DNA of 16,767 nucleotides from Candidatus Hadarchaeota archaeon (GTDB lineage: Archaea; Hadarchaeota; Hadarchaeia; Hadarchaeales; JAGGTB01), in assembly GCA_964384105.1 (NCBI GenBank), contig CAYLJV010000009.1, forward strand, positions 1 through 16,767. Reading direction: 5' to 3'. The notes below the pieces were generated by a model, which was given only the letters and a program-made list of their open reading frames with translations, was not told where the DNA came from and searched no databases. How positions within the stretch are numbered: position 1 is the stretch's first letter; every line of letters starts with the position of its first letter. Positions 1,522 through 15,706 of this stretch are shown here, piece after piece. Made by a program: the position numbers and the translations under genes.

Positions 1522-1902
1522 TCAAGAAATCGGCCTGTCGAATATGGCATCAACAATCTTTTCATATTGTTCTTTGGGATTGGTTCCCTTCATTATATAT
1601 TTGTCAGCTTTGAGATTGAGGGCTTCCATGGCTATCTCCTCTCCCCCTTTTCCGGTGAGTATTATAAATGGGGTTTCTACTCTCTTATCTCGAATCTTTT
1701 TCAAAAGTGTTAGACCATCCATTTCTGGCATCTTATAGTCTGCCACAATTGCGTCGTATTTGACGGAATCTATTTTCGCAAGTGCTTCTTTGGGGTCGTT
1801 CGTTGTATCGACTTTAACTTCGTCTTCTTGTTTCTCCCATAGCTTTTTGTTTACTTCTAGAAAATCGGGATCATCATCAATTAGTAGGATTTTAATTTTC
1901 AA
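1522..1902 (-). CDS. Stand-alone response regulator receiver (CheY-like) protein
   Basis: ILLIDDD acidic pocket, phosphoacceptor in IVADYKMPEMDG, ILTG, and YIMK; no output domain; GGAGGT RBS and TTG start. Confidence 0.92.
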   Translation of the reverse strand: MKIKILLIDDDPDFLEVNKKLWEKQEDEVKVDTTNDPKEALAKIDSVKYDAIVADYKMPEMDGLTLLKKIRDKRVETPFIILTGKGGEEIAMEALNLKADKYIMKGTNPKEQYEKIVDAIFDRPIS

Positions 1903-1995
1903 TTTATTACCTCCCGGAAGAGAACTGGCAACCTCCGATCACTATATTTTATTGATACACAATTATAAATTAATGGCGATTAGATTTTGGAATTA

Positions 1996-3186
1996 CTAGG
2001 TCATTTCCGAGTGTTTGCTTTCTACAGCTTTTATTGGTATTTCTTCTATTTCCACGAGCATATGGATAAAAGATTCCATCGCTATAAGGGATCTAATTTC
2101 AAATAATGCTCTCTCAGGAGTTCTTGGAGGGTTCTCTACTCTACTTGCGTTGCCAGGTATCATCCGCCCAGGTACTTCGATGCATATGTCGGATAGTTTA
2201 CCAAGAGGAGAGTCCTCGAAACTGGTCAGAGCCGCTATTTTGCCTCCAAGAGTTTTTATCGGTCTTAAAATTCTAGCCCAGAACTCTTGCCCGGATCCTG
2301 AGAGTATTATTATGAGGTCTCCTTCTCTTGCTGCTACATTTCCTGCGTCTTTATAGTAATTAACTCGCCTTTCTTTGTCCTCCCCTGCACAGTGCGCTAG
2401 TCTAATAGCGATGGTTCTCGCAACTACCCCAGAGAGGTCAAGTCCTCCTACTATTATCTTGTTTGGTATTTTTCCAATTTTACTCGGAGCAGAGTAATCT
2501 ATTGGTTCAGGGAACTTTTTGTAGAGGTCTTCAAATCCGCTTGGTTCTGGATCGTACTCTTTTACCTTGTTCCAAAATTCTTTCTGATATTCTAAAATGG
2601 GTTGGTTGGAGACGATACTGCCTAGGCAATCTAAAATAAATTTTAATGCATATAGTTCTCCTAAGGTTCCTCCAAGGGTTAGTGGCTCGTGCCCTCCTGC
2701 GAGTTGTCTCTCTTGATACTTGGTTTTATCCAGCTTACTTTTACCAGGGATTTTGACAACGAAACCACCAGTTTTTTCCGATAGTTGCGCTAGGCTGGAG
2801 TTTTCGTTTGTGGTTATGGAAACGACTGGTGTTGAGTCGGAAATGGATTTATAGGCAAACTCGGCGTAGTGCACAGTTCTTTCGGTCTCTCCAGAGGAAG
2901 ATAGAGCTACCACGAGATCGTCGGGCCTATATTCGTAAGGTATTGACGAGTCTTTTGAACAAAAAGTTGTTTTATTGTTTGCTTTAGTAAGACGGGTTGC
3001 AAAATCTGCCATTTCCTCCTGTCTTCCCGTTCCTATCCAAATCACTCTCTTGGATTCCTTCAGAAGTTTTACGAACTTTTCAGAATTCTCTACATATCGA
3101 TCTACGTTTTCTTTGGAAGGAAACTCCTGTATTCTTTCTACACTCTTTTTGTATAACTCTGGAAGCTCTTGAAACTGCTCGATCAT
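1996..3186 (-). CDS. Tandem SIS-domain protein, 6-phospho-3-hexuloisomerase (PHI)-like duplication
   Basis: Two PHI-like halves: WIGTGR...ALSSSGET...ITTNENSSLA...RQLAGGHEPL..GTL and VGGLDLSG...ILSGSG...LTSFEDSPLGKLSD...LFE...KH. Confidence 0.8.
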   Translation of the reverse strand: MIEQFQELPELYKKSVERIQEFPSKENVDRYVENSEKFVKLLKESKRVIWIGTGRQEEMADFATRLTKANNKTTFCSKDSSIPYEYRPDDLVVALSSSGETERTVHYAEFAYKSISDSTPVVSITTNENSSLAQLSEKTGGFVVKIPGKSKLDKTKYQERQLAGGHEPLTLGGTLGELYALKFILDCLGSIVSNQPILEYQKEFWNKVKEYDPEPSGFEDLYKKFPEPIDYSAPSKIGKIPNKIIVGGLDLSGVVARTIAIRLAHCAGEDKERRVNYYKDAGNVAAREGDLIIILSGSGQEFWARILRPIKTLGGKIAALTSFEDSPLGKLSDICIEVPGRMIPGNASRVENPPRTPERALFEIRSLIAMESFIHMLVEIEEIPIKAVESKHSEMT

Positions 3187-3226
3187 ATTTAATATTTGTT
3201 TTTGGATTAAGAAAAGAATTTTGTTT

Positions 3227-4564
3227 CTATTTCTTTAGAGAGTCTTCTATATCTTTCCAGCTTTCTGTAAGGTCTCTGTGAGTGAACGGTTTTGCATCGG
3301 CTCCTACGTAGGTTGCTACTATATGACCATCACCTATTAGATAATATTTCGAAGTTGTGAGACCTTCCAATCCTACGGGACCTCTTGCGTGTATCTTCCC
3401 CGTGCTGATTCCAACTTCGGCTCCAAGCCCATATCTGTAACCATCACTGAATCTAGTTGAAGCGTTTGCCACCACCGTAGAGGAATCGACATTGTTCAAG
3501 AAGGATAGAATCCTGCTATCGTTCTCTGAGATTATGGAATCTGTATGTTTTGAACCGTATGTGTTGATATGATTTATCGCGTCTTGGAGTTTGTTTACTA
3601 TTTTTATTGAAATTATGAGATCGAGATATTCAGTTTTCCAATCTTCCTCTGTGGCTTCCTTTATGTCTTTCAGGATTTTCCTTGTATCTTTACAACCTCT
3701 GATTTCAACCCCTGCCTCTTTATACCTCTTGGCAAGTTCTGGTAGGATGTCTTGGGCTATTTTTTCGTGAACCAACAAAGTTTCGACTGCATTGCAGACG
3801 GCGGAATATTGAACTTTTCCATCATAGCAAATTTCAAGTGCATTTTCTAGTTCAGCGTCTTTGTCAACATATATATGACAGAGTCCTTCTGCGTGGCCTA
3901 GAACTGGAATTCTACTATTGTTTTGTATAAATCGAATGAAGTTTTTGCTTCCACGAGGAATTATTAGATCGACTTTATCGTCTTGATCAAGTAACTCCCG
4001 GACCTCTTTTCTAGCTTCTATTAGTTGAACCCATCCTCGAGGAATCCCCACGTTTTCTGTAGCTTCTTTTATGAGATCGAAAAGGATTCTATTTGACTTT
4101 TCGGCTTCACTTCCACCTTTCAGTATTACTGCATTTCCGGATTTTAGACATAAGGATGATATTTGAGGAAGTACATCGGGTCTTGATTCAAAAATAGAGC
4201 CGATTACCCCGATGGGGGCGGTGATTTTGTAGAGTTTTAAACCTTCATCAAGTTCCCTACTAAAAATTGTTTTATTTAACGGGTCTTCTTGTTCTGCAAC
4301 GCTTCTTATCATATCAACTATATTCTCGACTTTGGTTTCGTTTAGTTTCAATCTCTTAACTAAGGCTTTGGAATACTCTCCCTTTTCCAGCATTCTCTCT
4401 GCTTTTTCGATATCTTCCTTGTTGGCTTTTAGGATCTCTGAGATGTTCTCTTCTATTAAGTCAGCGGCCTTTAGGAGTGCTTTGTTACGGGTTTCTTTGG
4501 ATATATTCGCTAGCTTAAGTGCTGCCTGCTGTGCTTCAGTAGCTTTTGTTTCTACATCTTTCAT
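3227..4564 (-). CDS. proA: Gamma-glutamyl phosphate reductase (glutamate-5-semialdehyde dehydrogenase)
   Basis: GVIGSIFESRP, LKSGNAVILKGG, IIPRG, catalytic CNAVETLLVH, HINTYGSKHTDSI, NASTRFSDG, GAEVGISTGKIHARGPVGL; ATGA overlap with proB. Confidence 0.98.
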   Translation of the reverse strand: MKDVETKATEAQQAALKLANISKETRNKALLKAADLIEENISEILKANKEDIEKAERMLEKGEYSKALVKRLKLNETKVENIVDMIRSVAEQEDPLNKTIFSRELDEGLKLYKITAPIGVIGSIFESRPDVLPQISSLCLKSGNAVILKGGSEAEKSNRILFDLIKEATENVGIPRGWVQLIEARKEVRELLDQDDKVDLIIPRGSKNFIRFIQNNSRIPVLGHAEGLCHIYVDKDAELENALEICYDGKVQYSAVCNAVETLLVHEKIAQDILPELAKRYKEAGVEIRGCKDTRKILKDIKEATEEDWKTEYLDLIISIKIVNKLQDAINHINTYGSKHTDSIISENDSRILSFLNNVDSSTVVANASTRFSDGYRYGLGAEVGISTGKIHARGPVGLEGLTTSKYYLIGDGHIVATYVGADAKPFTHRDLTESWKDIEDSLKK

Positions 4565-5391
4565 GGTTTCACCTTTTCTTCTCCTTTTTTCTGAGATATA
4601 AACAACGTACCTATTTCTTCTCCTTCAATTATTCTTTTTAACACTTTTTCCTTAGAGGCATCTGTTATTATCACTGGGATCCCATCTTCCGTTGCTATCT
4701 TTGCTGCCTGAACTTTAGTTATAATACCTCCGAAGTCTTTGCTCGAAGTTCTTTTTGTCAACTCTTCTATCTCAGGAGTCACTTTTTCGACAAGATGTAT
4801 CGGTTTTGCAGAGTCTACCTTTTTAGGATCATCGGTATGGAGTCCATCTACGTCTGTGAGTAGGACCAATAGATCCGCGTCGACTCCTGTTGCTGTGAAA
4901 GCAGAGAGGAGGTCGTTATCCCCCATCCTAATTTCCTCGACGGCCACAGCGTCGTTCTCGTTTATAATCGGGATGACCCCCCAGTTTGAAAGTGCTTCTA
5001 TCGTGTTCTTGAGATTTTTGAATCTGTTCGGATTCGTAAAGTCCTGTTGAGTGAGTAAGAGCTGAGCTACGTGATATCCGTATTCTTCGAAATTTTCACT
5101 GTAAATTCTCATGAGAGCCCCCTGTCCAATAGTTGAAGCTGCTTGAAGGAGCTTCATATCTTCTGGTCTTTTGATGAATAATTTTCCTATTCCTGCACCT
5201 ATCGCTCCAGAAGAAACTAAAATTACCTCTTTTTCCGCTTTTGCTAGATCCACTAAGCTTTCAACCAGTCTTTTTATCTTCCCCTCGTCGATTCTCGAAT
5301 TTTCATCGGTTAACGAGTTAGTTCCAACCTTTACTACCACTCTTTTAACTTTTGACAGTTCACTTCTAAACTTTTCATGTTTTTTGATCAT
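4561..5391 (-). CDS. proB: Glutamate 5-kinase (short form lacking the PUA domain)
   Basis: VVVKVGT, LVSSGAI, QLLLT, PIINENDAV, GDNDLLSA, LLTDVDGL, GGIITKVQAA; ends at GTLF with no PUA domain (276 aa). Confidence 0.97.
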   Translation of the reverse strand: MIKKHEKFRSELSKVKRVVVKVGTNSLTDENSRIDEGKIKRLVESLVDLAKAEKEVILVSSGAIGAGIGKLFIKRPEDMKLLQAASTIGQGALMRIYSENFEEYGYHVAQLLLTQQDFTNPNRFKNLKNTIEALSNWGVIPIINENDAVAVEEIRMGDNDLLSAFTATGVDADLLVLLTDVDGLHTDDPKKVDSAKPIHLVEKVTPEIEELTKRTSSKDFGGIITKVQAAKIATEDGIPVIITDASKEKVLKRIIEGEEIGTLFISQKKGEEKVKP

Positions 5392-5624
5392 CTATTTCAC
5401 ATATCTTTGGCTTCTTAGACATTCCATACTCAGAAACTTTAGATTTAAAGTTGGGGGAATTTTGAAATTTTATGAGTTAATCAATGTGTTCCCCCGAATA
5501 TTCTTCTGAGGATTATTTAGTATTTCTTTTTAGGAGTTTGGATAAAAAATCAGTATCGAAGGGATCAAAAATAAATCGTTGTCAGTGATTTCAGTCCCCA
5601 AACTTTTGGGACATATTGGTTAGA

Positions 5625-6998
5625 ATGACTGAAGATAATATGAACCTGGGAATACCTGTAGAAAGGTCTATTGAGGGAAGTGTTCCTAAAGGTAGTACCA
5701 TTCTTGTTTGCGGTCCTTCAGGAACTGGAAAGACTGCGATGTCTCTGCAGTATGTTTTCAATGGAATAACCGATCAGGGGGAGCCAGCTGTATTTGTTTC
5801 TTTTTTGAATGATAAGGACTCCTTGTTCTCGATGGCGAAAAAGTTCGATTGGCATCTAAAGAAATCAGAGAAAGAAAACATGATTCAAGTAATTCTTGCC
5901 TACCCGTCTTCTAGAAAATTTCGAGAATGGACTAGTAATTTTCAGGGTATGAATGAGGAGATTTTGGAATCTATAGATAAGATGGAGGCCGAGAGGGTTG
6001 TTTTAGACGGGTTGGATGATCTACATAGAATCTGTAAGGACGAGAATGAATTTAGGTCTGGATTGTATTTTCTGATTCGCGAGCTTCGAAAAAGAGAGTG
6101 CATCACTCTGTTAAATGCTCGTTCGGGTTACGGTGTCGAAGATATTGTGGATGGAGTGGTTAGACTAGGTTTCAAGAAAGTAGATTCTGGAGAGAAAAGT
6201 AGGTCTATGGAAATAGCGAAGATGAACGGCATTAAGCACTCTCTAAATGAAATGTTGTACAAGATTAGTGGGGAGGGGTTGGAAATTACTAGTGAAGTAG
6301 AGCGAAAAGAACTTCCGGAAACAATGCCTGAAAGCGTGGAGACTCCGGGGGGAGAAATGGGTGAAAAAAATGATTTTCTTGATTCTCTTCTCAGACACGA
6401 TATTCGCAATAAGGCTCAAGTAATAATGGGCTATCTCGAACTTCTGAAAGAAGAGAGTCTTACAGAGAATGGTCAAGAAATGATAGACAAAGCTACAAAA
6501 GCTACTAAGGACTGTACGGAATTGATAGATAAGATTACAACTCTCAAGAAGGTAATCAAGGAAGAAGTCGGTAAGATAAGTCTTAATCCGATTATCAAAA
6601 ACGTGATCAGCGAATTGGAACCCCGAGCGACCAAGAAAGGTATGAAGATTGAATTCAGCAGTTGCGATTGCAAAGTTCGAGCCGGGTCTTTGATAGAGGA
6701 GCTTTTCTCTAATCTAATTTCTAATTCTATTCAACATTCAGGGGGTAATAAGGTGAGTATTTCTATTCATGAAGCGGATGCGATGGTTCGAGCGACGGTG
6801 GAGGACGATGGGAGTGGAGTCCCCGATGAGATTAAGGAACAAGTCTTTGAGAAAGGTTTCAAGATGGGCGAGTCTTCCGGTTCCGGTTTGGGCTTATATA
6901 TAGTTAAGAAGATGGCGGAAAGCTATGGTGGACGTGCGGAGATCAAGGATTCGGAACTGGGTGGGGCTAGATTCGATATATACCTAAAGAAAGCCTGA
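5625..6998 (+). CDS. KaiC/RAD55-like ATPase domain fused to a HisKA/HATPase_c histidine kinase
   Basis: Walker A GPSGTGKT (5712-5735), Walker B VVLDG, KaiC-like VDGVVRL..RSMEIAKM; H-box LLRHDIRN (His codon 6396), N-box NLISNSIQH, G1 DDGSG, F-box VFEKGF, G2 GSGLGL. Start is ATG 5625 or TTG 5616. Confidence 0.9.
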   Translation: MTEDNMNLGIPVERSIEGSVPKGSTILVCGPSGTGKTAMSLQYVFNGITDQGEPAVFVSFLNDKDSLFSMAKKFDWHLKKSEKENMIQVILAYPSSRKFREWTSNFQGMNEEILESIDKMEAERVVLDGLDDLHRICKDENEFRSGLYFLIRELRKRECITLLNARSGYGVEDIVDGVVRLGFKKVDSGEKSRSMEIAKMNGIKHSLNEMLYKISGEGLEITSEVERKELPETMPESVETPGGEMGEKNDFLDSLLRHDIRNKAQVIMGYLELLKEESLTENGQEMIDKATKATKDCTELIDKITTLKKVIKEEVGKISLNPIIKNVISELEPRATKKGMKIEFSSCDCKVRAGSLIEELFSNLISNSIQHSGGNKVSISIHEADAMVRATVEDDGSGVPDEIKEQVFEKGFKMGESSGSGLGLYIVKKMAESYGGRAEIKDSELGGARFDIYLKKA

Positions 6999-7039
6999 CT
7001 TCAGGAAACTTTCTCTCTCTTATGTTTTAATGATTTGAT

Positions 7040-8422
7040 TTAATTCCAGCTTGAGAAGGGTTCTATGGAGTTATATGGGCTAACATTCCACCAGTCCAGT
7101 TCCTCTTTGGGGACGTAATAAGTTGTGCCGCCCTCTATGAGGTCTTTCGGAGATTCATAGGTTTCGCAAGGATTATAAAGTTCCTGTTTCATGGATTCGT
7201 CGTCGCTGATTAGCGAAGTACTATGAGTTTTGTTGTAGTAGGTAACATACGAGTATTCTTTGTAACTGCCATTGGGGGCTTCGACTATTCCCGGTGGGAA
7301 ATAGTTTCCTTCAGCTAGATATGTTGTTTCTACAGCTACCTCATTTTGGTTACCAAGGTCTACCATTATCCAACTGTGGGCTTCTTTCGGAATTTTTCTT
7401 TCCTTCAAACTGTAATTTAGTGCAATTTCTGCTCTGAATCCTGCCCCTTCGAGCATCCATTCTATTATGGTACTCATCTCGGAACAGTCGAAGTAGTCTC
7501 GGGAGTAGGGTCGAATGGAAACCTGGTTCAAAAAATCGGCCAATCCTTGTATATTCTTTTCCTCTGGTAGCTCGTAGTTACTTGCTAAATAGTTTCTTGC
7601 GCTGCTATAGTAATATTCGGGATAGTCGAGTGGATTATTTACTGGATTTCTAACTTCTATAACTCCTTCTAGACTTTCGGAAAGTCCAGATACTTTCACT
7701 ACATGGGTTCCTTCATGTTTTAAATCAAGGTTAAAAGAGATTCTCTTTTCTTCTCCTGCTTCTAGTCGGATAGTCTTCTCTTTGGTTGTCCCATCAACTT
7801 TTATTTTTATGGTCTTCTCCCCTTCTACATCTCCGGTATTTTGGATTTCGAAAAGTAATTTTGCCCCTTCTCCCAGCATTATCTCTGAAGGTTCTATAAC
7901 GAGATTACCTCCTTCGAATTTCGCCGGTTCAAAAACTTCGAAACTTTCTGATAGATTATCTACAAGTACTTCGTGTGTCCCGTTTCCCAGGTTTATTTGA
8001 AAGCTTAATCTTTCTATTTCGTTTATTCCCAATGTTACACTTCTACTACCGTAAATCTCTCCGTCAATCTCTAAGTTTATCTCGCGGGTCGGGGCGAATT
8101 CATTATTAAGAAAATTCCAGATTAGTGAAAATTTTTTTAGACAAGAGAGAATCAGTCCTTCTGATTTTGTGGTATTTCTTACATTAAATGTGACCAATAC
8201 AGGGGTTCCGGAGATAACCTCCTCCGGCTTCACGTCTAGTTCCTCCGCCTCGATTTTCTGATTCGAGAAGACTTCGTAGACTTGAAAGCAGAGTAACAAG
8301 AGGATTCCCGATAGTGCAATTGCTAAAACCTTCTTTTTTGACCACCAGTTTCCTCGAGATTTGCCAGAGGTGTATGTGGGTTCTCTCTTTGGATTTTGTT
8401 CACTGCCGTTTGTTTCTTTCAT
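7040..8422 (-). CDS. Membrane-anchored surface protein with two CARDB/Ig-like domains and a C-terminal transglutaminase/papain-like domain
   Basis: AGGTGA RBS; KKK followed by a TM helix; repeated V.P.E...G..V...F.(V/I).N and G.H.V.V CARDB patterns; YFDCSEMS...AHSWIMV...VAVETT. Confidence 0.7.
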   Translation of the reverse strand: MKETNGSEQNPKREPTYTSGKSRGNWWSKKKVLAIALSGILLLLCFQVYEVFSNQKIEAEELDVKPEEVISGTPVLVTFNVRNTTKSEGLILSCLKKFSLIWNFLNNEFAPTREINLEIDGEIYGSRSVTLGINEIERLSFQINLGNGTHEVLVDNLSESFEVFEPAKFEGGNLVIEPSEIMLGEGAKLLFEIQNTGDVEGEKTIKIKVDGTTKEKTIRLEAGEEKRISFNLDLKHEGTHVVKVSGLSESLEGVIEVRNPVNNPLDYPEYYYSSARNYLASNYELPEEKNIQGLADFLNQVSIRPYSRDYFDCSEMSTIIEWMLEGAGFRAEIALNYSLKERKIPKEAHSWIMVDLGNQNEVAVETTYLAEGNYFPPGIVEAPNGSYKEYSYVTYYNKTHSTSLISDDESMKQELYNPCETYESPKDLIEGGTTYYVPKEELDWWNVSPYNSIEPFSSWN

Positions 8423-9655: not shown

Positions 9656-11206
9656 TTACTCCAGTCCTATTTTGAGGAATGTTGCCCAGTTCCTACCGGG
9701 GAAGTCTATTCCATATCCGTTGCCATCAAAGTCGCCTTCTCCGTAGATGCCTGCCCATGCTGTTTCACATCCGACTACCATTTTTCCGTATATTGGTACA
9801 TTCTCATAGATTGGCTGTTCCTCGTAAATGGGTTGTTCTTCATAGATTGGTTCGCTAATTTCACCCACTCCCATGTCTCCGTTTCCTAGAATGTGTTGGT
9901 CTCCATTGTCGAGGTAGGTTGGGTACTTCTTTCCTATTGTGGAGTCAGTTGGATCCACAGTCCAGATGGCGGATCTCTCCGGCACTGGATCATCTAAATA
10001 CCATCCCTTGACAGAACCGACTAAGTCACCAGTACCACCGGCTCTGATTGTAAGTCCACTGAACTCTAAAGCATTCTCGGGTGTTCCCATGTGCTCGGCA
10101 GTCATTGTTGAAATGTCTACAGCCCAGACTCCGAGTTCTGATGGTGTAGTTGGTGCTTCGTTGATCCAGATGTAGAGTGTTCCGTCAGCACCGAAGACTA
10201 TGTCTGCTCCCCAGATGTTGAGGGATTCAGTCGTGCCTTCCTTCGTAATAGTGCCGAGATTATTCAACGCTAGAGTGTCAACATTCAGAGTGTATAACTG
10301 ATCATTGGTCATACTAGCTATGTATAGGTTATCATCGAATGGTGAGAATGTTGCTAGGACCACACCACTTGGAAGACCTGAGATTACACCCATGTCGGCG
10401 AAAGTACTCGTGCCGAGATTGAAGATTCCCAAGTGCTTCGAGACCATGTCTATAGCGTAAAGCTCATCAGCATCCGCTGAGCAGGCTAGTGCTGCGACTA
10501 CGTCAAAATTTGGTGCTGGTAAATGACCAAGCCATGTTAAGTAGGCATTGTTGTCAGTGTCATTGAGTGCTACTGTGTATAGTTCAGTCCCCCCACCATC
10601 ACCATTCGGGTATCCAGAATCACTCAAATACAGGGTTTCTTCAACCTCTGTCCAACCTACTAGGATGTTTTCATAACCTACTATGACATTCTCGTAACCT
10701 ACTAGGATGTTTTCATAACCGATGATGTTGTCGTAATTCTCTGCCAGTTCACAGACTACTGCGTGTGCTGCGATGTATAGGTTTTCACCTTCCCAGCCCG
10801 TATCCGAGTAGCAGTATTTTGCCATCTGGTTTTCGTCTTCAATGTCAAAATAGTCGCTGATTTCGAACTGTCCGGGAGTTGGATTGCCGTTATTCATTGG
10901 AATGTCTCCATAATCTGCGGAAACTTGTAAATGGATTTCCGTCAAATACCAGTTATCCATGGTCTGGTATGTCACACACAAGTTTTCACCATCGTATTCT
11001 ACTACTAAGTCTCCTACGTCTATGTATTGTCCTGCAATGAGGTCTGCAATCAGGTTGTCCCCTGAGGATAGGGTAGCCATTAATCCTGATTCCGGTTCAC
11101 TAGTATCTGGTTTTCCTTTTCCGTTTCCTGGTCCTGCAAAGGCGGGAACTACCGCGACTGAGAGTATAAAGGCTATGCTAATCATTGAGATTAATATTCT
11201 TTTCAT
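9656..11206 (-). CDS. Secreted/surface protein: beta-rich domain interrupted by a repeat stalk and a beta-propeller
   Basis: GGAGGTGA RBS places the start at ATG 11206; Sec signal MKRILISMISIAFILSVAVVPAFA; LIAGQ...YIAAHAVV / ETAW...NWAT domain; propeller-like blades (ALACSADADELYAID, TFSPFDDNLYIAS, DIVFGADGTLYIW). Confidence 0.8.
   Translation of the reverse strand: MKRILISMISIAFILSVAVVPAFAGPGNGKGKPDTSEPESGLMATLSSGDNLIADLIAGQYIDVGDLVVEYDGENLCVTYQTMDNWYLTEIHLQVSADYGDIPMNNGNPTPGQFEISDYFDIEDENQMAKYCYSDTGWEGENLYIAAHAVVCELAENYDNIIGYENILVGYENVIVGYENILVGWTEVEETLYLSDSGYPNGDGGGTELYTVALNDTDNNAYLTWLGHLPAPNFDVVAALACSADADELYAIDMVSKHLGIFNLGTSTFADMGVISGLPSGVVLATFSPFDDNLYIASMTNDQLYTLNVDTLALNNLGTITKEGTTESLNIWGADIVFGADGTLYIWINEAPTTPSELGVWAVDISTMTAEHMGTPENALEFSGLTIRAGGTGDLVGSVKGWYLDDPVPERSAIWTVDPTDSTIGKKYPTYLDNGDQHILGNGDMGVGEISEPIYEEQPIYEEQPIYENVPIYGKMVVGCETAWAGIYGEGDFDGNGYGIDFPGRNWATFLKIGLE
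9785..9853 (-). repeat. 18-nt coding tandem repeat (EPIYEEQPIYEEQPIYENVPIYG)
   Basis: About 4 imperfect 6-aa units; TCATAGATTGG recurs at a 36-nt spacing. Confidence 0.85.
10652..10735 (-). repeat. 21-nt coding tandem repeat (YDNIIG YENILVG YENVIVG YENILVG W)
   Basis: Exact 25-nt copy AACCTACTAGGATGTTTTCATAACC at 10654-10678 and 10696-10720. Confidence 0.9.
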
Positions 11207-11426
11207 TTTTTTCACCTCCCTAAATTTAAAAGCGATAATGCTGCGAAATATTACATTAAGAAAGCAATCGCCATTTGGCTCTTCATATAATTAGTATAAA
11301 AAACAGTAAGGAACAATATTCTGAACGTAATTCTATTGATTGTCTTCTCTTATTGAATATCAAAATGTAAAAAGCCCCCATATTCTCAAGATCAGAGACT
11401 AAGGGGGGTTTAGATTAAGGAAATCG

Positions 11427-11434: not shown

Positions 11435-11459
11435 AAAAGATTTCTTCTTTTTGTTTACC

Positions 11460-12032
11460 ATGAACGAAGAAGGAGTAAGTAGAAACTTGGGGTTAATTGC
11501 CCTGGCAGTGGTTGTGGTTATCATTATCGCTACATTTTCTGGGGGTTTCTTTTCTAATGAGAGTGATGAACCCCCTTCTTACGAAAATTCAGATTATAAA
11601 CTATTTGTAAGTGAGAACTATAATTTCTCTTTTCCTTATCCCTCGACATGGGATATAAAAAATTATGAATCTTCAGAAATGACAGTAGTTATAGTTTCGG
11701 AGAATTCCACTTCCGAAAATTCAGTGGCACGAGCATTGATCTACGCAGGCTCTCTTGGTTATCCTCCACTTGATAAAATAAGAAGCCAGCTAGAAAATAA
11801 TGAGAATATAAATATAGTTGGAGATGTTCAAGAAGTTTCTGTCGACGGAGTGCCCGGTGTGGATATTTCATTCGTTTCCGATAGAGAAAACCAAAATACT
11901 CGAGCAAGAACTAGGGTGCTAAAAAAAGAAGGCTTTGAATGTTCTATTTCTTACTATGTTCAAGAAAATTATTACGAGAGGTTTAAGACTGGCTTGATAC
12001 CTGTAATCGAAAATTTCTCGTTCATTGAATAA
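11460..12032 (+). CDS. Membrane-anchored PsbP/Mog1-like protein
   Basis: N-terminal TM helix; YKLFVSENYNFSFPYPSTW, EVSVDGVPG and C-terminal VIENFSF are typical of PsbP-related domains. Start moved to ATG 11460. Confidence 0.7.
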   Translation: MNEEGVSRNLGLIALAVVVVIIIATFSGGFFSNESDEPPSYENSDYKLFVSENYNFSFPYPSTWDIKNYESSEMTVVIVSENSTSENSVARALIYAGSLGYPPLDKIRSQLENNENINIVGDVQEVSVDGVPGVDISFVSDRENQNTRARTRVLKKEGFECSISYYVQENYYERFKTGLIPVIENFSFIE

Positions 12033-13472: not shown

Positions 13473-15706
13473 ATGGAGACAAAACTTTACGTTTTTGGAT
13501 TTCCCGAGAATTCAGGACCAGGTGAGATTTTGGGTGCTATCGTAGGAGATGCGAATATTAGTAGATAGCAATAAGGTTGGGAACATTGAGATAAATGGAT
13601 CTTTTGCAGAAATTTTTGTCTCTGAAGATATTGTTGATGGAGTAGTGGAACGCTTGGATAATATTTCAGGAGTACCGGTACTGGTTTCTAGAGCCGAGGA
13701 ATCTGAAGAAACCAAAGTTCACTTTCTTCGACTTGCTAAATTCGTTGAGCTAGAGAGAAAGAGTGAGATGGAAACGCACGAAAGTGAAATCACGAAATTG
13801 TCTGGACATGAGAGGGAGAAGGAAGGAAGGGCCGTTCTTCATCTCAAGGGAAAAGACGAAGGAACGGGTTTAGGTGGTAAACACCTCCTAAAGTTTTCTC
13901 GGCAGAGGAGTGGGGAATCTCTTCCAGAAACTGAGGTAGGTATAGGCGGTCTCGTGATGCTCTCTAAAAGTGATCCACTGAGGGACGACAATCCGACGGG
14001 AACCGTTTCCGAAAAGACTAATTATTCGATTACCGTGGCGTTTGATCAAAAACCTGATGATTTTCTTTATGGAAAGGGAATAAGATGCGATCTTTATGTC
14101 AATGATGTTACATATCAGAGACAACTGGAAGTCTTAGCGAAAGTCTATAGGGGCGAGAAAAATAGACTTGAAGATCTAGCTGAAAAGTCCCTTGGAAAAA
14201 AAGATATCGAATTTGACAAGACCGGCCATGAAGTTCAGTTCCTTAATCCTGATTTAAATTATTCTCAAAAGGAATCTGTTAGAAAAGCGATTTCTGCTGA
14301 GGATTTTTTCTTGATTCATGGGCCACCGGAACCGGTAAGACTATCACTTGTATAGAAATAGCGAGGCAACTTCTTCGAAGAGGTGAGGATGTTCTCTGCG
14401 TGGCAGATTCTAATACAGCAGTAGATAATCTGGTCGAATGGCTTGCGGAAGCTGGCGAGAAAGTAATTCGAATAGGACATCCTGCACGAGTTTCACATTC
14501 TCTAAGGAACCATACGCTTGATGAGATAATCCAGGATAATGAGAAGTATAAGAAAAGTAGTGAGCTCAGAAAAAAAGCATTTGCGCTTTTAAAAAAACAG
14601 GAAGAGTTTACTCATCCGGGTGACGATGGAGGCGAGGAATGAGTGATAGAAGAATAAAGGAGTTGGCCGAGAAAGAGAAGGGTTCTCGAGGGGTCCCTCC
14701 TTCAAAGATCAAAGAAATGGCAAAATGGCTCGAGCTTCAGGAAAAGATCGATGACTTGTTTGAAAGAGTTGAGAGTTTAGAGGAGGAAGCGATTGAAGAA
14801 ATTATCGAATGGGCCGATGTAGTCTGCGCTACGAATTCGGTCTGCGGTTCCGAATTGATGAATAGTAGAAATTTTGACACGGTCATAATCGATGAGGCAA
14901 CCCAAGCCACAGAGCCTAGTTGTTGGCTTCCTATATCTCTATCAGAAAAGGTCATCCTGGCAGGGGACCACAAACAGCTTCCACCTACTATACTCAATGA
15001 GGATGCAAAGTTTTTGAGTAAAACGTTGTTTGAGAGACTCGTGGATATTTTTGGAGATGAGATTCGTAGTACTCTGGAAATTCAGTATAGGATGAATGAA
15101 GACATAATGAATTTTTCCAACAAGGAGTTCTATAATGGGGTTTTGAAGGCTGATGAATCTGTGGCAGACCACACTCTTGTTGGACTGATCGATAATGATA
15201 TTGGTTGTGAAAGTACTGTAGAAAAATCACTTCAGCCGGAACCCTCGATAGTGTTTATAGATACCGCTGAAATGGGTGCGGAGGAAAGAACGAGAGAGGG
15301 ATCTACTTCGAAGGAAAACCCGAAAGAAGCAAAAATTGTTTTTTCTATAATATCTAAGCTGCTTGAACTGGGAATGGATCCGAGTGATATAGCTGTTATA
15401 TCTCCTTACGAAGACCAGGTGGATCGGATAAGTAGAGAAGTTGATGAGAAATATTTGGAGATAGATACTGTAGATGGATTCCAGGGCAGGGAAAAAGAGG
15501 TAGTAATATTATCCTTGGTTAGAAGTAATGAAACTGGAAATATCGGGTTTTTGAAAGATGTCAGAAGATTAAATGTTTCATTGACTAGAGCCAAAAGGAA
15601 ACTAGTAGTCATTGGAGACAGTGCAACTGTAGGTTATCACGAGACATACTCTCGGCTTATCAATTATATATACGAGAACGGAGAAATCATTCCTGCTGAG
15701 GTATGA
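13473..15706 (+). pseudogene. IGHMBP2/Upf1-like (DNA2/NAM7) SF1 helicase with N-terminal DbpA-type RNA-binding domain; three frameshifts (pseudogene or sequence errors)
   Basis: AGGTGA RBS plus ATG 13473 (METKLYVFGFPENSGPGEILGAIVGDANI); frameshifts at ~13560, ~14329 (inside GPPGTGKT) and ~14622; motifs LN.SQ, ADSNTAVDNL, IIDEATQ, LAGDHKQLPP, QYRM, TVDGFQGREKE, RRLNVSLTRAK. Confidence 0.88.

Follow-up and report, generated by a model that had tools for sequence, protein, structure and literature searches.

KaiC-like ATPases have reportedly been proposed as signalling hubs of archaea, and gene pairs of a KaiC protein and a histidine kinase are widespread in bacteria. Inactivated KaiC-type domains are already known as modules of two-component systems, and KaiC-kinase partnerships are already known as separate proteins. 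For the former, Galperin et al. 2018 label the MEDS and DUF835 domains 'iKaiC', citing Makarova et al. 2017 for the MEDS label, and give MEDS as a sensor domain of archaeal histidine kinases (PMC5847659). For the latter, operons that combine a KaiC with a kinase, and in some cases with a single-domain receiver, are described from Pseudomonas (bioRxiv 10.1101/2022.01.26.477890), Ramlibacter (Rta_04330/04340; PMC3164672) and Leptolyngbya (KaiC2-HK; PMC11680916), and the Pseudomonas KaiC homologs bind both themselves and neighbouring kinases. Here we describe a gene in which the two partners form one chain. It lies at 5625..6998 (+) of a 16,767-nucleotide stretch of DNA (the window) from contig C9 of G000, the genome of an uncultured salt-loving archaeon assigned to Candidatus Hadarchaeota (1.62 Mb in 12 contigs, 90% complete), and it encodes a single P-loop-bearing KaiC-like domain fused directly to a histidine kinase transmitter.

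The MEDS kinases resemble this protein in that a KaiC-superfamily inactive domain stands N-terminal to a cytoplasmic HisKA/HATPase_c core as its input; G000 itself encodes one. The window domain is unlike MEDS in matching PF06745 (E 2e-42) and not PF14417 at E<=0.1, in keeping both Walker A and Walker B, and in coming from a clade of otherwise stand-alone KaiC-like proteins. Because the two Walker motifs are kept, it can be expected to bind nucleotide, unlike MEDS, which is presumably a domain without a P-loop. The bacterial operons share with the window protein the functional and physical coupling of a KaiC-family ATPase to a two-component kinase, and a split form of this kind occurs in congeners of G000; the operons, however, encode separate proteins with a two-domain, active, phosphorylated KaiC, whereas the window gene encodes one chain with one domain and lost catalytic residues. 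SasA, too, has a docking domain related to the clock at the N-terminus of a kinase, and the state of the KaiC hexamer sets the activity of that kinase in the summary that the Pseudomonas study provides (10.1101/2022.01.26.477890), but the docking domain is KaiB-like and binds a separate KaiC, whereas here the N-terminal module is itself KaiC-like. The iKaiC-REC and REC-DUF835 regulators of Methanosarcinaceae and Methanomicrobia, as Table 2 of PMC5847659 gives them, likewise fuse an inactivated KaiC-type domain to a two-component module and have a narrow phyletic spread; their partner is a receiver domain and not, as here, a kinase transmitter. ArlH/FlaH of the archaellum motor offers a likeness by description: PMC8978795 presents it as a single-domain KaiC-like protein that binds ATP without hydrolysis and acts as a nucleotide-dependent regulator through oligomerisation, although it is a separate protein that works on the ArlI ATPase, with no two-component link.

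Our best reading is that the window protein is the P-loop-bearing counterpart of the MEDS kinases and the covalent version of the KaiC-kinase operons. The novelty lies in a PF06745 domain that bears a P-loop and is fused directly to a kinase transmitter, and in the clear derivation of that domain from KaiC-like proteins that stand free. An original prediction, made from this DNA alone, had implied that a KaiC-derived kinase input was new, and this holds for the direct P-loop fusion, whereas inactivated KaiC (MEDS) sensor domains were already in print.

The gene is a single open frame from ATG, encoding 457 residues (an alternative TTG start at 5616 leaves the same open frame to 6998). Residues 10-224 (5652..6296, +) form a single KaiC/RecA-type P-loop domain, KaiC CI-like, which Pfam, phmmer and Foldseek all identify: PF06745 matches with 145.6 bits against a cut-off of 26.6, solved KaiC chains match down to 4e-41 in phmmer, and the fold superposes on KaiC CI (4tlc, TM(target) 0.86) and on the archaeal single-domain KaiC-like protein PH0186 (2zts, 0.90). 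A flexible acidic linker follows at residues 223-248 (6291..6368, +). The HisKA/DHp dimerisation and phospho-acceptor domain (residues 256-309; 6390..6551, +; PF00512, 30.0 bits against a cut-off of 26.9) is modelled as a hairpin of two long helices, 243-275 and 281-312, and carries the H-box LRHDIRNK at residue 256, with the phospho-acceptor His258 at 6396-6398. The HATPase_c catalytic domain (residues 357-456; 6693..6992, +; PF02518, 79.8 bits against 26.4) has all its boxes, N at 363, G1 (DDGSGV) at 394, F (FEKGF) at 408 and G2 (GSGLGL) at 419. No PAS, GAF or MEDS (PF14417) family was found in the 457 residues by Pfam at E<=0.1, and no transmembrane segment, the highest 19-residue Kyte-Doolittle mean being 0.64. 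The AlphaFold2 model, built on a 48-row alignment, has a mean pLDDT of 90.4 with values below 50 confined to the linker core (residues 233-242), and its pTM of 0.57 fits two well-folded domains joined by a flexible tether. The architecture that had been predicted, a single KaiC/RecA-type domain, a linker and a complete HisKA/HATPase_c core in a soluble protein with no transmembrane, PAS or GAF part, is thus real by Pfam, hydropathy, AlphaFold2 and Foldseek; only the description of the linker as rich in both proline and glutamate needs adjusting, in that 8 of its 26 residues are Glu and just 3 are Pro.

With an H-box His in HisKA and the N, G1, F and G2 boxes in a GHKL domain, the C-terminal half has the hallmarks of a class I transmitter, and its predicted capacity is autophosphorylation and transfer to a receiver Asp. 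The N-terminal half passes the PF06745 profile cut-off and has the fold, Walker A and Walker B, and it lacks the Glu-Glu pair and the trans-acting Arg; it is a structural member of the KaiC family from which ATPase activity would not be expected.

Walker A (GPSGTGKT, residues 30-37; 5712..5735, +) is intact, with G33, G35 and K36 invariant in 15 aligned sequences, and in the Walker B strand (VVLDG, residues 125-129; 5997..6011, +), which aligns with KaiC 'rvvids', Asp128 is kept and near-invariant among the same 15. The catalytic residues are another matter. In a HMMER alignment to solved KaiC chains, 'fvsflnd' of the query lies under 'fvtfeet' of KaiC CI and 'eiakmngikh' under 'eilklrgtsh', so that Asn201 stands under the Arg of KLRG; we take the aligned KaiC positions to be the catalytic glutamates and the arginine finger. 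The HMMER alignment and two MAFFT alignments agree in placing Leu61-Asn62 of FLND (residues 60-63; 5802..5813, +) at the Glu-Glu position, and alignments likewise place Asn201 (codon AAC) of KMNG (residues 199-202; 6219..6230, +) at the Arg-finger position of KMRG, just as the original prediction had read these residues. A figure legend in PMC11680916 likewise points out the catalytic Glu pair of KaiC.

The two substitutions have different histories. At the Glu-Glu position, the other fused proteins known to us, P0003 and P0241, read FLDD, a stand-alone KaiC-like paralog of 226 residues in G000 reads FVDD, and a stand-alone metagenomic relative, L113, reads LSDD; the corresponding Arg motifs are KMRK in both fused homologs, KMRG in the paralog and KMRR in L113. 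Further out, P0242 and the proteins of eight genomes from another family of the same order read S[FL]ER and P0243 reads SFEQ, all with KMR kept, and most archaeal single-domain KaiCs have EE, others EQ, DE or ER. Because the free paralog and L113 share the loss of the first catalytic Glu, these alignments date it before, or independently of, the fusion and make it a trait of a small clade consisting mostly of free proteins. The Arg-to-Asn change is, by contrast, private to the window protein: position 201 is Arg in 14 of the 15 aligned sequences, the window protein alone being without it. Conservation therefore bears out the Glu loss, which recurs in the fused homologs and in stand-alone relatives, and not the Arg loss, as P0003 and P0241 keep KMR; and the idea that the Glu loss belongs to the fusion fails, since the free paralog and L113 share it.

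Was the join itself real? Logan contigs of four sequencing runs were compared over 5400-7100. A contig of X1, possibly the run from which the window derives, covers 5400-7035 with zero differences; one of X2, a run from the same study but another sample, extends over 5400-6548 with 1 difference and crosses the junction from the KaiC-like domain through the linker to the H-box; and X4, a brine metagenome from a different study, has a variant of 90-97% identity represented by short contigs, of which one (6235-6391) spans the junction. The Logan contigs were free of reported indels, joints and loose ends at this point. In the X4 variant, the 39 differences shown, of 51, alter 38 codons, 21 synonymously and 17 non-synonymously, with none at codons 60-63 or 201; in contigs of such low depth the split is a rough sign of constraint. 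The same three domains recur in P0003 (479 residues), which is 43% identical over 98% of the query, and in a third fused member, P0241 (also 479 residues), 93% identical to P0003 in the KaiC part; both are about 43-45% identical to the window protein, and all three keep Walker A and Walker B. Because contigs from another sample and another study bridge the join and fused homologs exist, an assembly or frameshift artefact is ruled out for practical purposes, and with it both the chimeric join and the possibility that homologs are always two genes, either of which would have undone the original prediction.

The direct fusion is very rare, with three sequences known. When 1.84 billion cluster representatives were scanned exhaustively with HMMER, 485 proteins reached E<=1e-30; among the best 150, only P0003 besides the query matches across both domains, and the remaining 148 match the kinase core only, from query position 184 or later, although more divergent fusions could hide below rank 150. 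HATPase_c is present in 2 of 120 listed KaiC-domain relatives of P0003, namely P0003 itself and P0241. Among 185,579 species-representative genomes, none of the 95 KaiC-bearing open reading frames (ORFs) at the 80 nearest loci (all at most 36% identical) includes a kinase core, and a kinase gene lies within 4 kb at 11 of the 80, mostly bacterial; none of 20 KaiC ORFs at 18 loci of the JGI metagenomes is fused. Among the 66 genomes of the phylum, G000 alone has a match to the KaiC clade in a long frame other than a double KaiC, and the fused form is absent from the six other genomes of the genus (65-91% complete), each of which has 13-38 kinase-core matches. In 401 Thermoplasmatota genomes searched with the fused profile at E<=1e-78, four candidates per genome being scored, only the kinase core matched, which is a weak negative. 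No KaiC-plus-kinase cluster was found in the ESM Atlas, where the whole protein led to kinase clusters and residues 1-320 to HisKA fragments (<=0.80), and a word-index search with the window's KaiC region, insensitive enough to miss P0003, returned 5 proteins. Literature searches, with a coverage that does not extend to Makarova et al. 2017, yielded no report of a direct KaiC-kinase fusion, and the architecture was not found in three of the four supplementary files of PMC5847659 (Galperin et al. 2018).

G000 encodes exactly two members of the KaiC clade in question, the fused one on contig C9 and the 226-residue free one on contig C1 (C1:620592-621269; L001:1480-2160, -), so that the two genes are unlinked. 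The paralog is 49% identical to the P0003 domain and 32% to the window domain. In a careful tree of 18 rows, the window domain, the paralog and the pair P0003 and P0241 form a group supported 99/99, and a six-member clade that also includes P0242 and P0243 is supported 95/97; the nearest further relatives, P0242, P0243 and the proteins of the eight genomes from another family of the same order, are all stand-alone. The trees thus place the descent of the domain in a small clade of stand-alone single-domain KaiC-like proteins in which the first Glu was already lost. The clade is patchy, as the paralog has no close ortholog in the congeners, its best match there being 37% identical. The end branch of the window domain measures 1.82 changes per column and that of the paralog 0.57; the window copy has evolved fast, and it alone has done so. 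The paralog gene stands, as judged by eye, between an ORF resembling pyridine-nucleotide oxidoreductases and a multi-pass membrane ORF, and a 235-residue frame containing a receiver (REC) domain lies about 6 kb from it, at C1:627470.

The kinase half belongs to a large family that, going by the names given in the sources, comprises cytoplasmic kinases of the PAS and REC-PAS types from archaea, halophilic ones among them, with about 15 in G000; proteins of kinase core only (229-269 residues: P0163, P0068, P0079, P0233 and P0055) exist in it as well. The window core is 48.6% identical to the P0003 core and 54.5% to a REC-PAS kinase of G000, and the P0003 core is 57-59% identical to G000 kinases. 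Because domain order and junction are identical and the KaiC parts share a clade, a single origin of the fusion is favoured, though not demonstrated; forcing the three fused cores together costs 8.86 lnL units (-8.86 lnL, p-AU 0.129) and is not rejected. Two fusion origins, or an exchange of the kinase core with paralogs, are possible.

Taken together, these observations incline us, by a modest degree of belief, toward a soluble orphan kinase whose sole input would be a non-hydrolysing KaiC-like module, which would gate it by binding ATP or by oligomerising. As Walker A and B are intact, the domain most likely retains nucleotide binding, and would bind ATP or ADP while hydrolysing little or none. 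A disordered acidic tether of about 26 residues would connect it to the dimeric DHp/CA core, and because this linker is predicted to be disordered, a signal passed along a rigid helix should be impossible and control through nucleotide-dependent domain association is most likely. Rings of KaiC-type domains form only when ATP is bound. Self-association of the KaiC-like domains that depends on nucleotide, and that the stand-alone paralog could join, would then alter the proximity or geometry of the kinase cores, and with it how fast His258 autophosphorylates and passes its phosphate to a receiver. The nearest candidate phospho-acceptor would be the product of a stand-alone receiver gene at 1522..1902 (-; PF00072, 3.1e-25), which lies 3.7 kb from the kinase gene; of the 20 REC matches in G000 only three are REC-only frames, this one and two on C1, near 643.7 kb and near 322.5 kb.

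Several observations weigh against this account. Nucleotide binding is predicted from motifs only, and the residue just past the lost pair, Asp63, does not vary among the fused proteins and the paralog; because it could be a substitute base, 'non-hydrolysing' is not proven. Both the long end branch of the window domain and the 17 non-synonymous changes among 38 altered codons in X4 are also compatible with relaxed constraint. The six congeners searched have neither the fusion nor a close ortholog of the stand-alone paralog, so that within the genus the module is not conserved, and the transcription unit of the kinase includes no receiver gene. As to origin, a single fusion event is not demonstrated, and the three possible inner topologies of the KaiC clade lie within <=0.02 lnL of one another (p-AU 0.45-0.49); each fused core is closer to ordinary G000 kinases than to the other fused core, and the three do not form one clade in the best tree, in kinase trees that do not resolve their branching.

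Two other accounts, both of which we hold to be possible but doubtful, give the free paralog a larger part. According to one, the fused protein and the 226-residue paralog build a mixed ring in which the Arg of the free subunits would serve the fused sites, so that ring composition and ATP/ADP occupancy would set the kinase output; the fusion may on this account have arisen repeatedly, which is possible because monophyly of the fused kinase cores is unsupported. If true, the mixed ring would give archaea a minimal and hard-wired equivalent of the KaiC-SasA output, feeding energy state or elapsed time into a His-Asp phosphorelay. Co-folding of fused residues 1-230 with the paralog, run without controls, gave scores of 0.01 and 0.00 against a mark of 0.32, which speak neither for nor against such an assembly. 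The other account, of the same tentative standing, makes the domain no nucleotide reporter but a docking module, which would insert the kinase into a ring or complex of the stand-alone paralog, whose regulation would control the kinase, a covalent analogue of SasA docking on KaiC. That G000 has exactly one free and one fused clade member speaks for docking, as do the better conservation of the free paralog (0.57 versus 1.82), its retained Arg, and the binding of KaiC homologs to themselves and to kinases in Pseudomonas as described in 10.1101/2022.01.26.477890. The binding is putative, however, the two genes are unlinked on different contigs (C9 and C1), and the retention of Walker A and B in all three fused proteins suggests that nucleotide binding still matters.

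Less probable still is a slow timer or autokinase of the hourglass type, in effect a one-protein KaiC-SasA, in which the domain would be active with Asp63 (in P0003 also Asp62) as its base. The invariance of Asp63 would suit such a timer, P0003 and P0241 do keep the Arg finger, and KaiC-like ArlH autophosphorylates according to PMC8978795. Yet the window protein has only one domain and lacks the first carboxylate as well as the Arg, and no KaiB (PF07689) was found in any of the 11 genomes searched (G000 and 10 relatives). The domain is moreover CI-like, and the stretch carrying the phosphorylation sites of KaiC CII, which we take to lie there, aligns with a gap. The protein falls short of the profiles for bona fide circadian KaiC, scoring 79.8 bits against 546.25 for TIGR02655 and 109.1 against 408 for PRK09302, and has one domain where that KaiC has two in tandem.

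We consider it unlikely that the gene is an accident in decay, that is, a recent fusion by read-through or deletion with a drifting N-terminal domain and a kinase that would be constitutive or inactive and without real input. The very long end branch and the private Arg loss would be expected of such a relic, the fusion was not found in the six congeners, and kinase-core-only proteins exist in the family; but the same architecture is kept at 43-45% identity and must have survived a long divergence, the frame is intact, both domains are modelled with confidence, the Walker motifs stand, and the ~90-97% identical variant from the other study keeps the frame without indels where covered. An assembly or frameshift artefact joining neighbouring genes, for which one might point out that the window is a 16.8-kb metagenome-assembled contig and that its best-covering run, X1, may be its source, has next to no probability in view of the clean X2 and X4 contigs across the junction and two independent fused homologs.

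The fusion gene stands alone, with proB divergent upstream and a convergent gene downstream. Upstream, proB (AA_kinase), proA (aldehyde dehydrogenase), a double-SIS gene and, last, the REC-only gene are closely packed on the opposite strand (1522-5391, -) and transcribed away from the kinase gene; that a proline-synthesis operon should end in a receiver gene hints, in an organism of brine or mat, at osmoregulatory control. A 460-residue frame at 7040-8422 (-) has a weak CARDB match, and a 519-residue frame at 9656-11215 (-) has no Pfam match. Farther along lie a PsbP_2-like protein (11451-12032, +), of a family unusual for an archaeon, and a superfamily 1 (SF1) helicase of the Upf1/SMUBP-2 type (13549-15706, +; 1B domain, AAA_11, AAA_12) split over three consecutive ORFs (13549-14355, 14400-14642 and 14639-15706), as a broken gene or through frameshift or assembly errors.

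Related parts occur elsewhere in G000 and its congeners in other combinations. The MEDS-kinase of G000 (449 residues; C3:9765-11126; L005:1378-2727, +) pairs MEDS (PF14417, 1.8e-47) with HATPase_c, and the KaiC profile PF06745 weakly matches its MEDS part (1.8e-4, profile positions 39-114), as would fit a MEDS domain that is KaiC-like and degenerate. Double-domain KaiCs of 491-498 residues are present in G002 (L016, G002:C33:1016-5991), G003 (L017, G003:C17) and G006 (L018, G006:C12), each within a signalling island, and none was found in G000. A PAS-kinase gene immediately precedes the double KaiC in G002 and G003, and G002 has a MEDS-PAS-kinase farther upstream as well; the double KaiC of G006 is flanked by REC-PAS proteins. 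Two of five congeners examined, G003 (L138, C78) and G005 (L139, C86), have a REC-only gene and a kinase (364+/407 residues) divergent from proB, in the position that the fusion gene takes in the window. This kinase was considered as an ortholog of the window gene and rejected, having an unassigned and unrelated N-terminal region of ~185 residues and a core only 27% identical, with the REC 34% identical. G001 and G002 have no kinase at that place.

What the fused gene may mean is bounded by the three known sequences, by the lack of a conserved place in the genus, by the prior publication of the idea of an inactivated KaiC-type input, and by a mechanism that is, for now, proposed from sequence. 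Domain fusion is nonetheless among the strongest sequence-only signs that two types of protein cooperate. As a soluble single chain of 457 residues, the window protein would be a model for measuring directly how the rate of a kinase depends on nucleotide and on oligomeric state. It also seems to stand midway between KaiC-like ATPases that are still active and the MEDS sensor domains, in which degeneration is complete.

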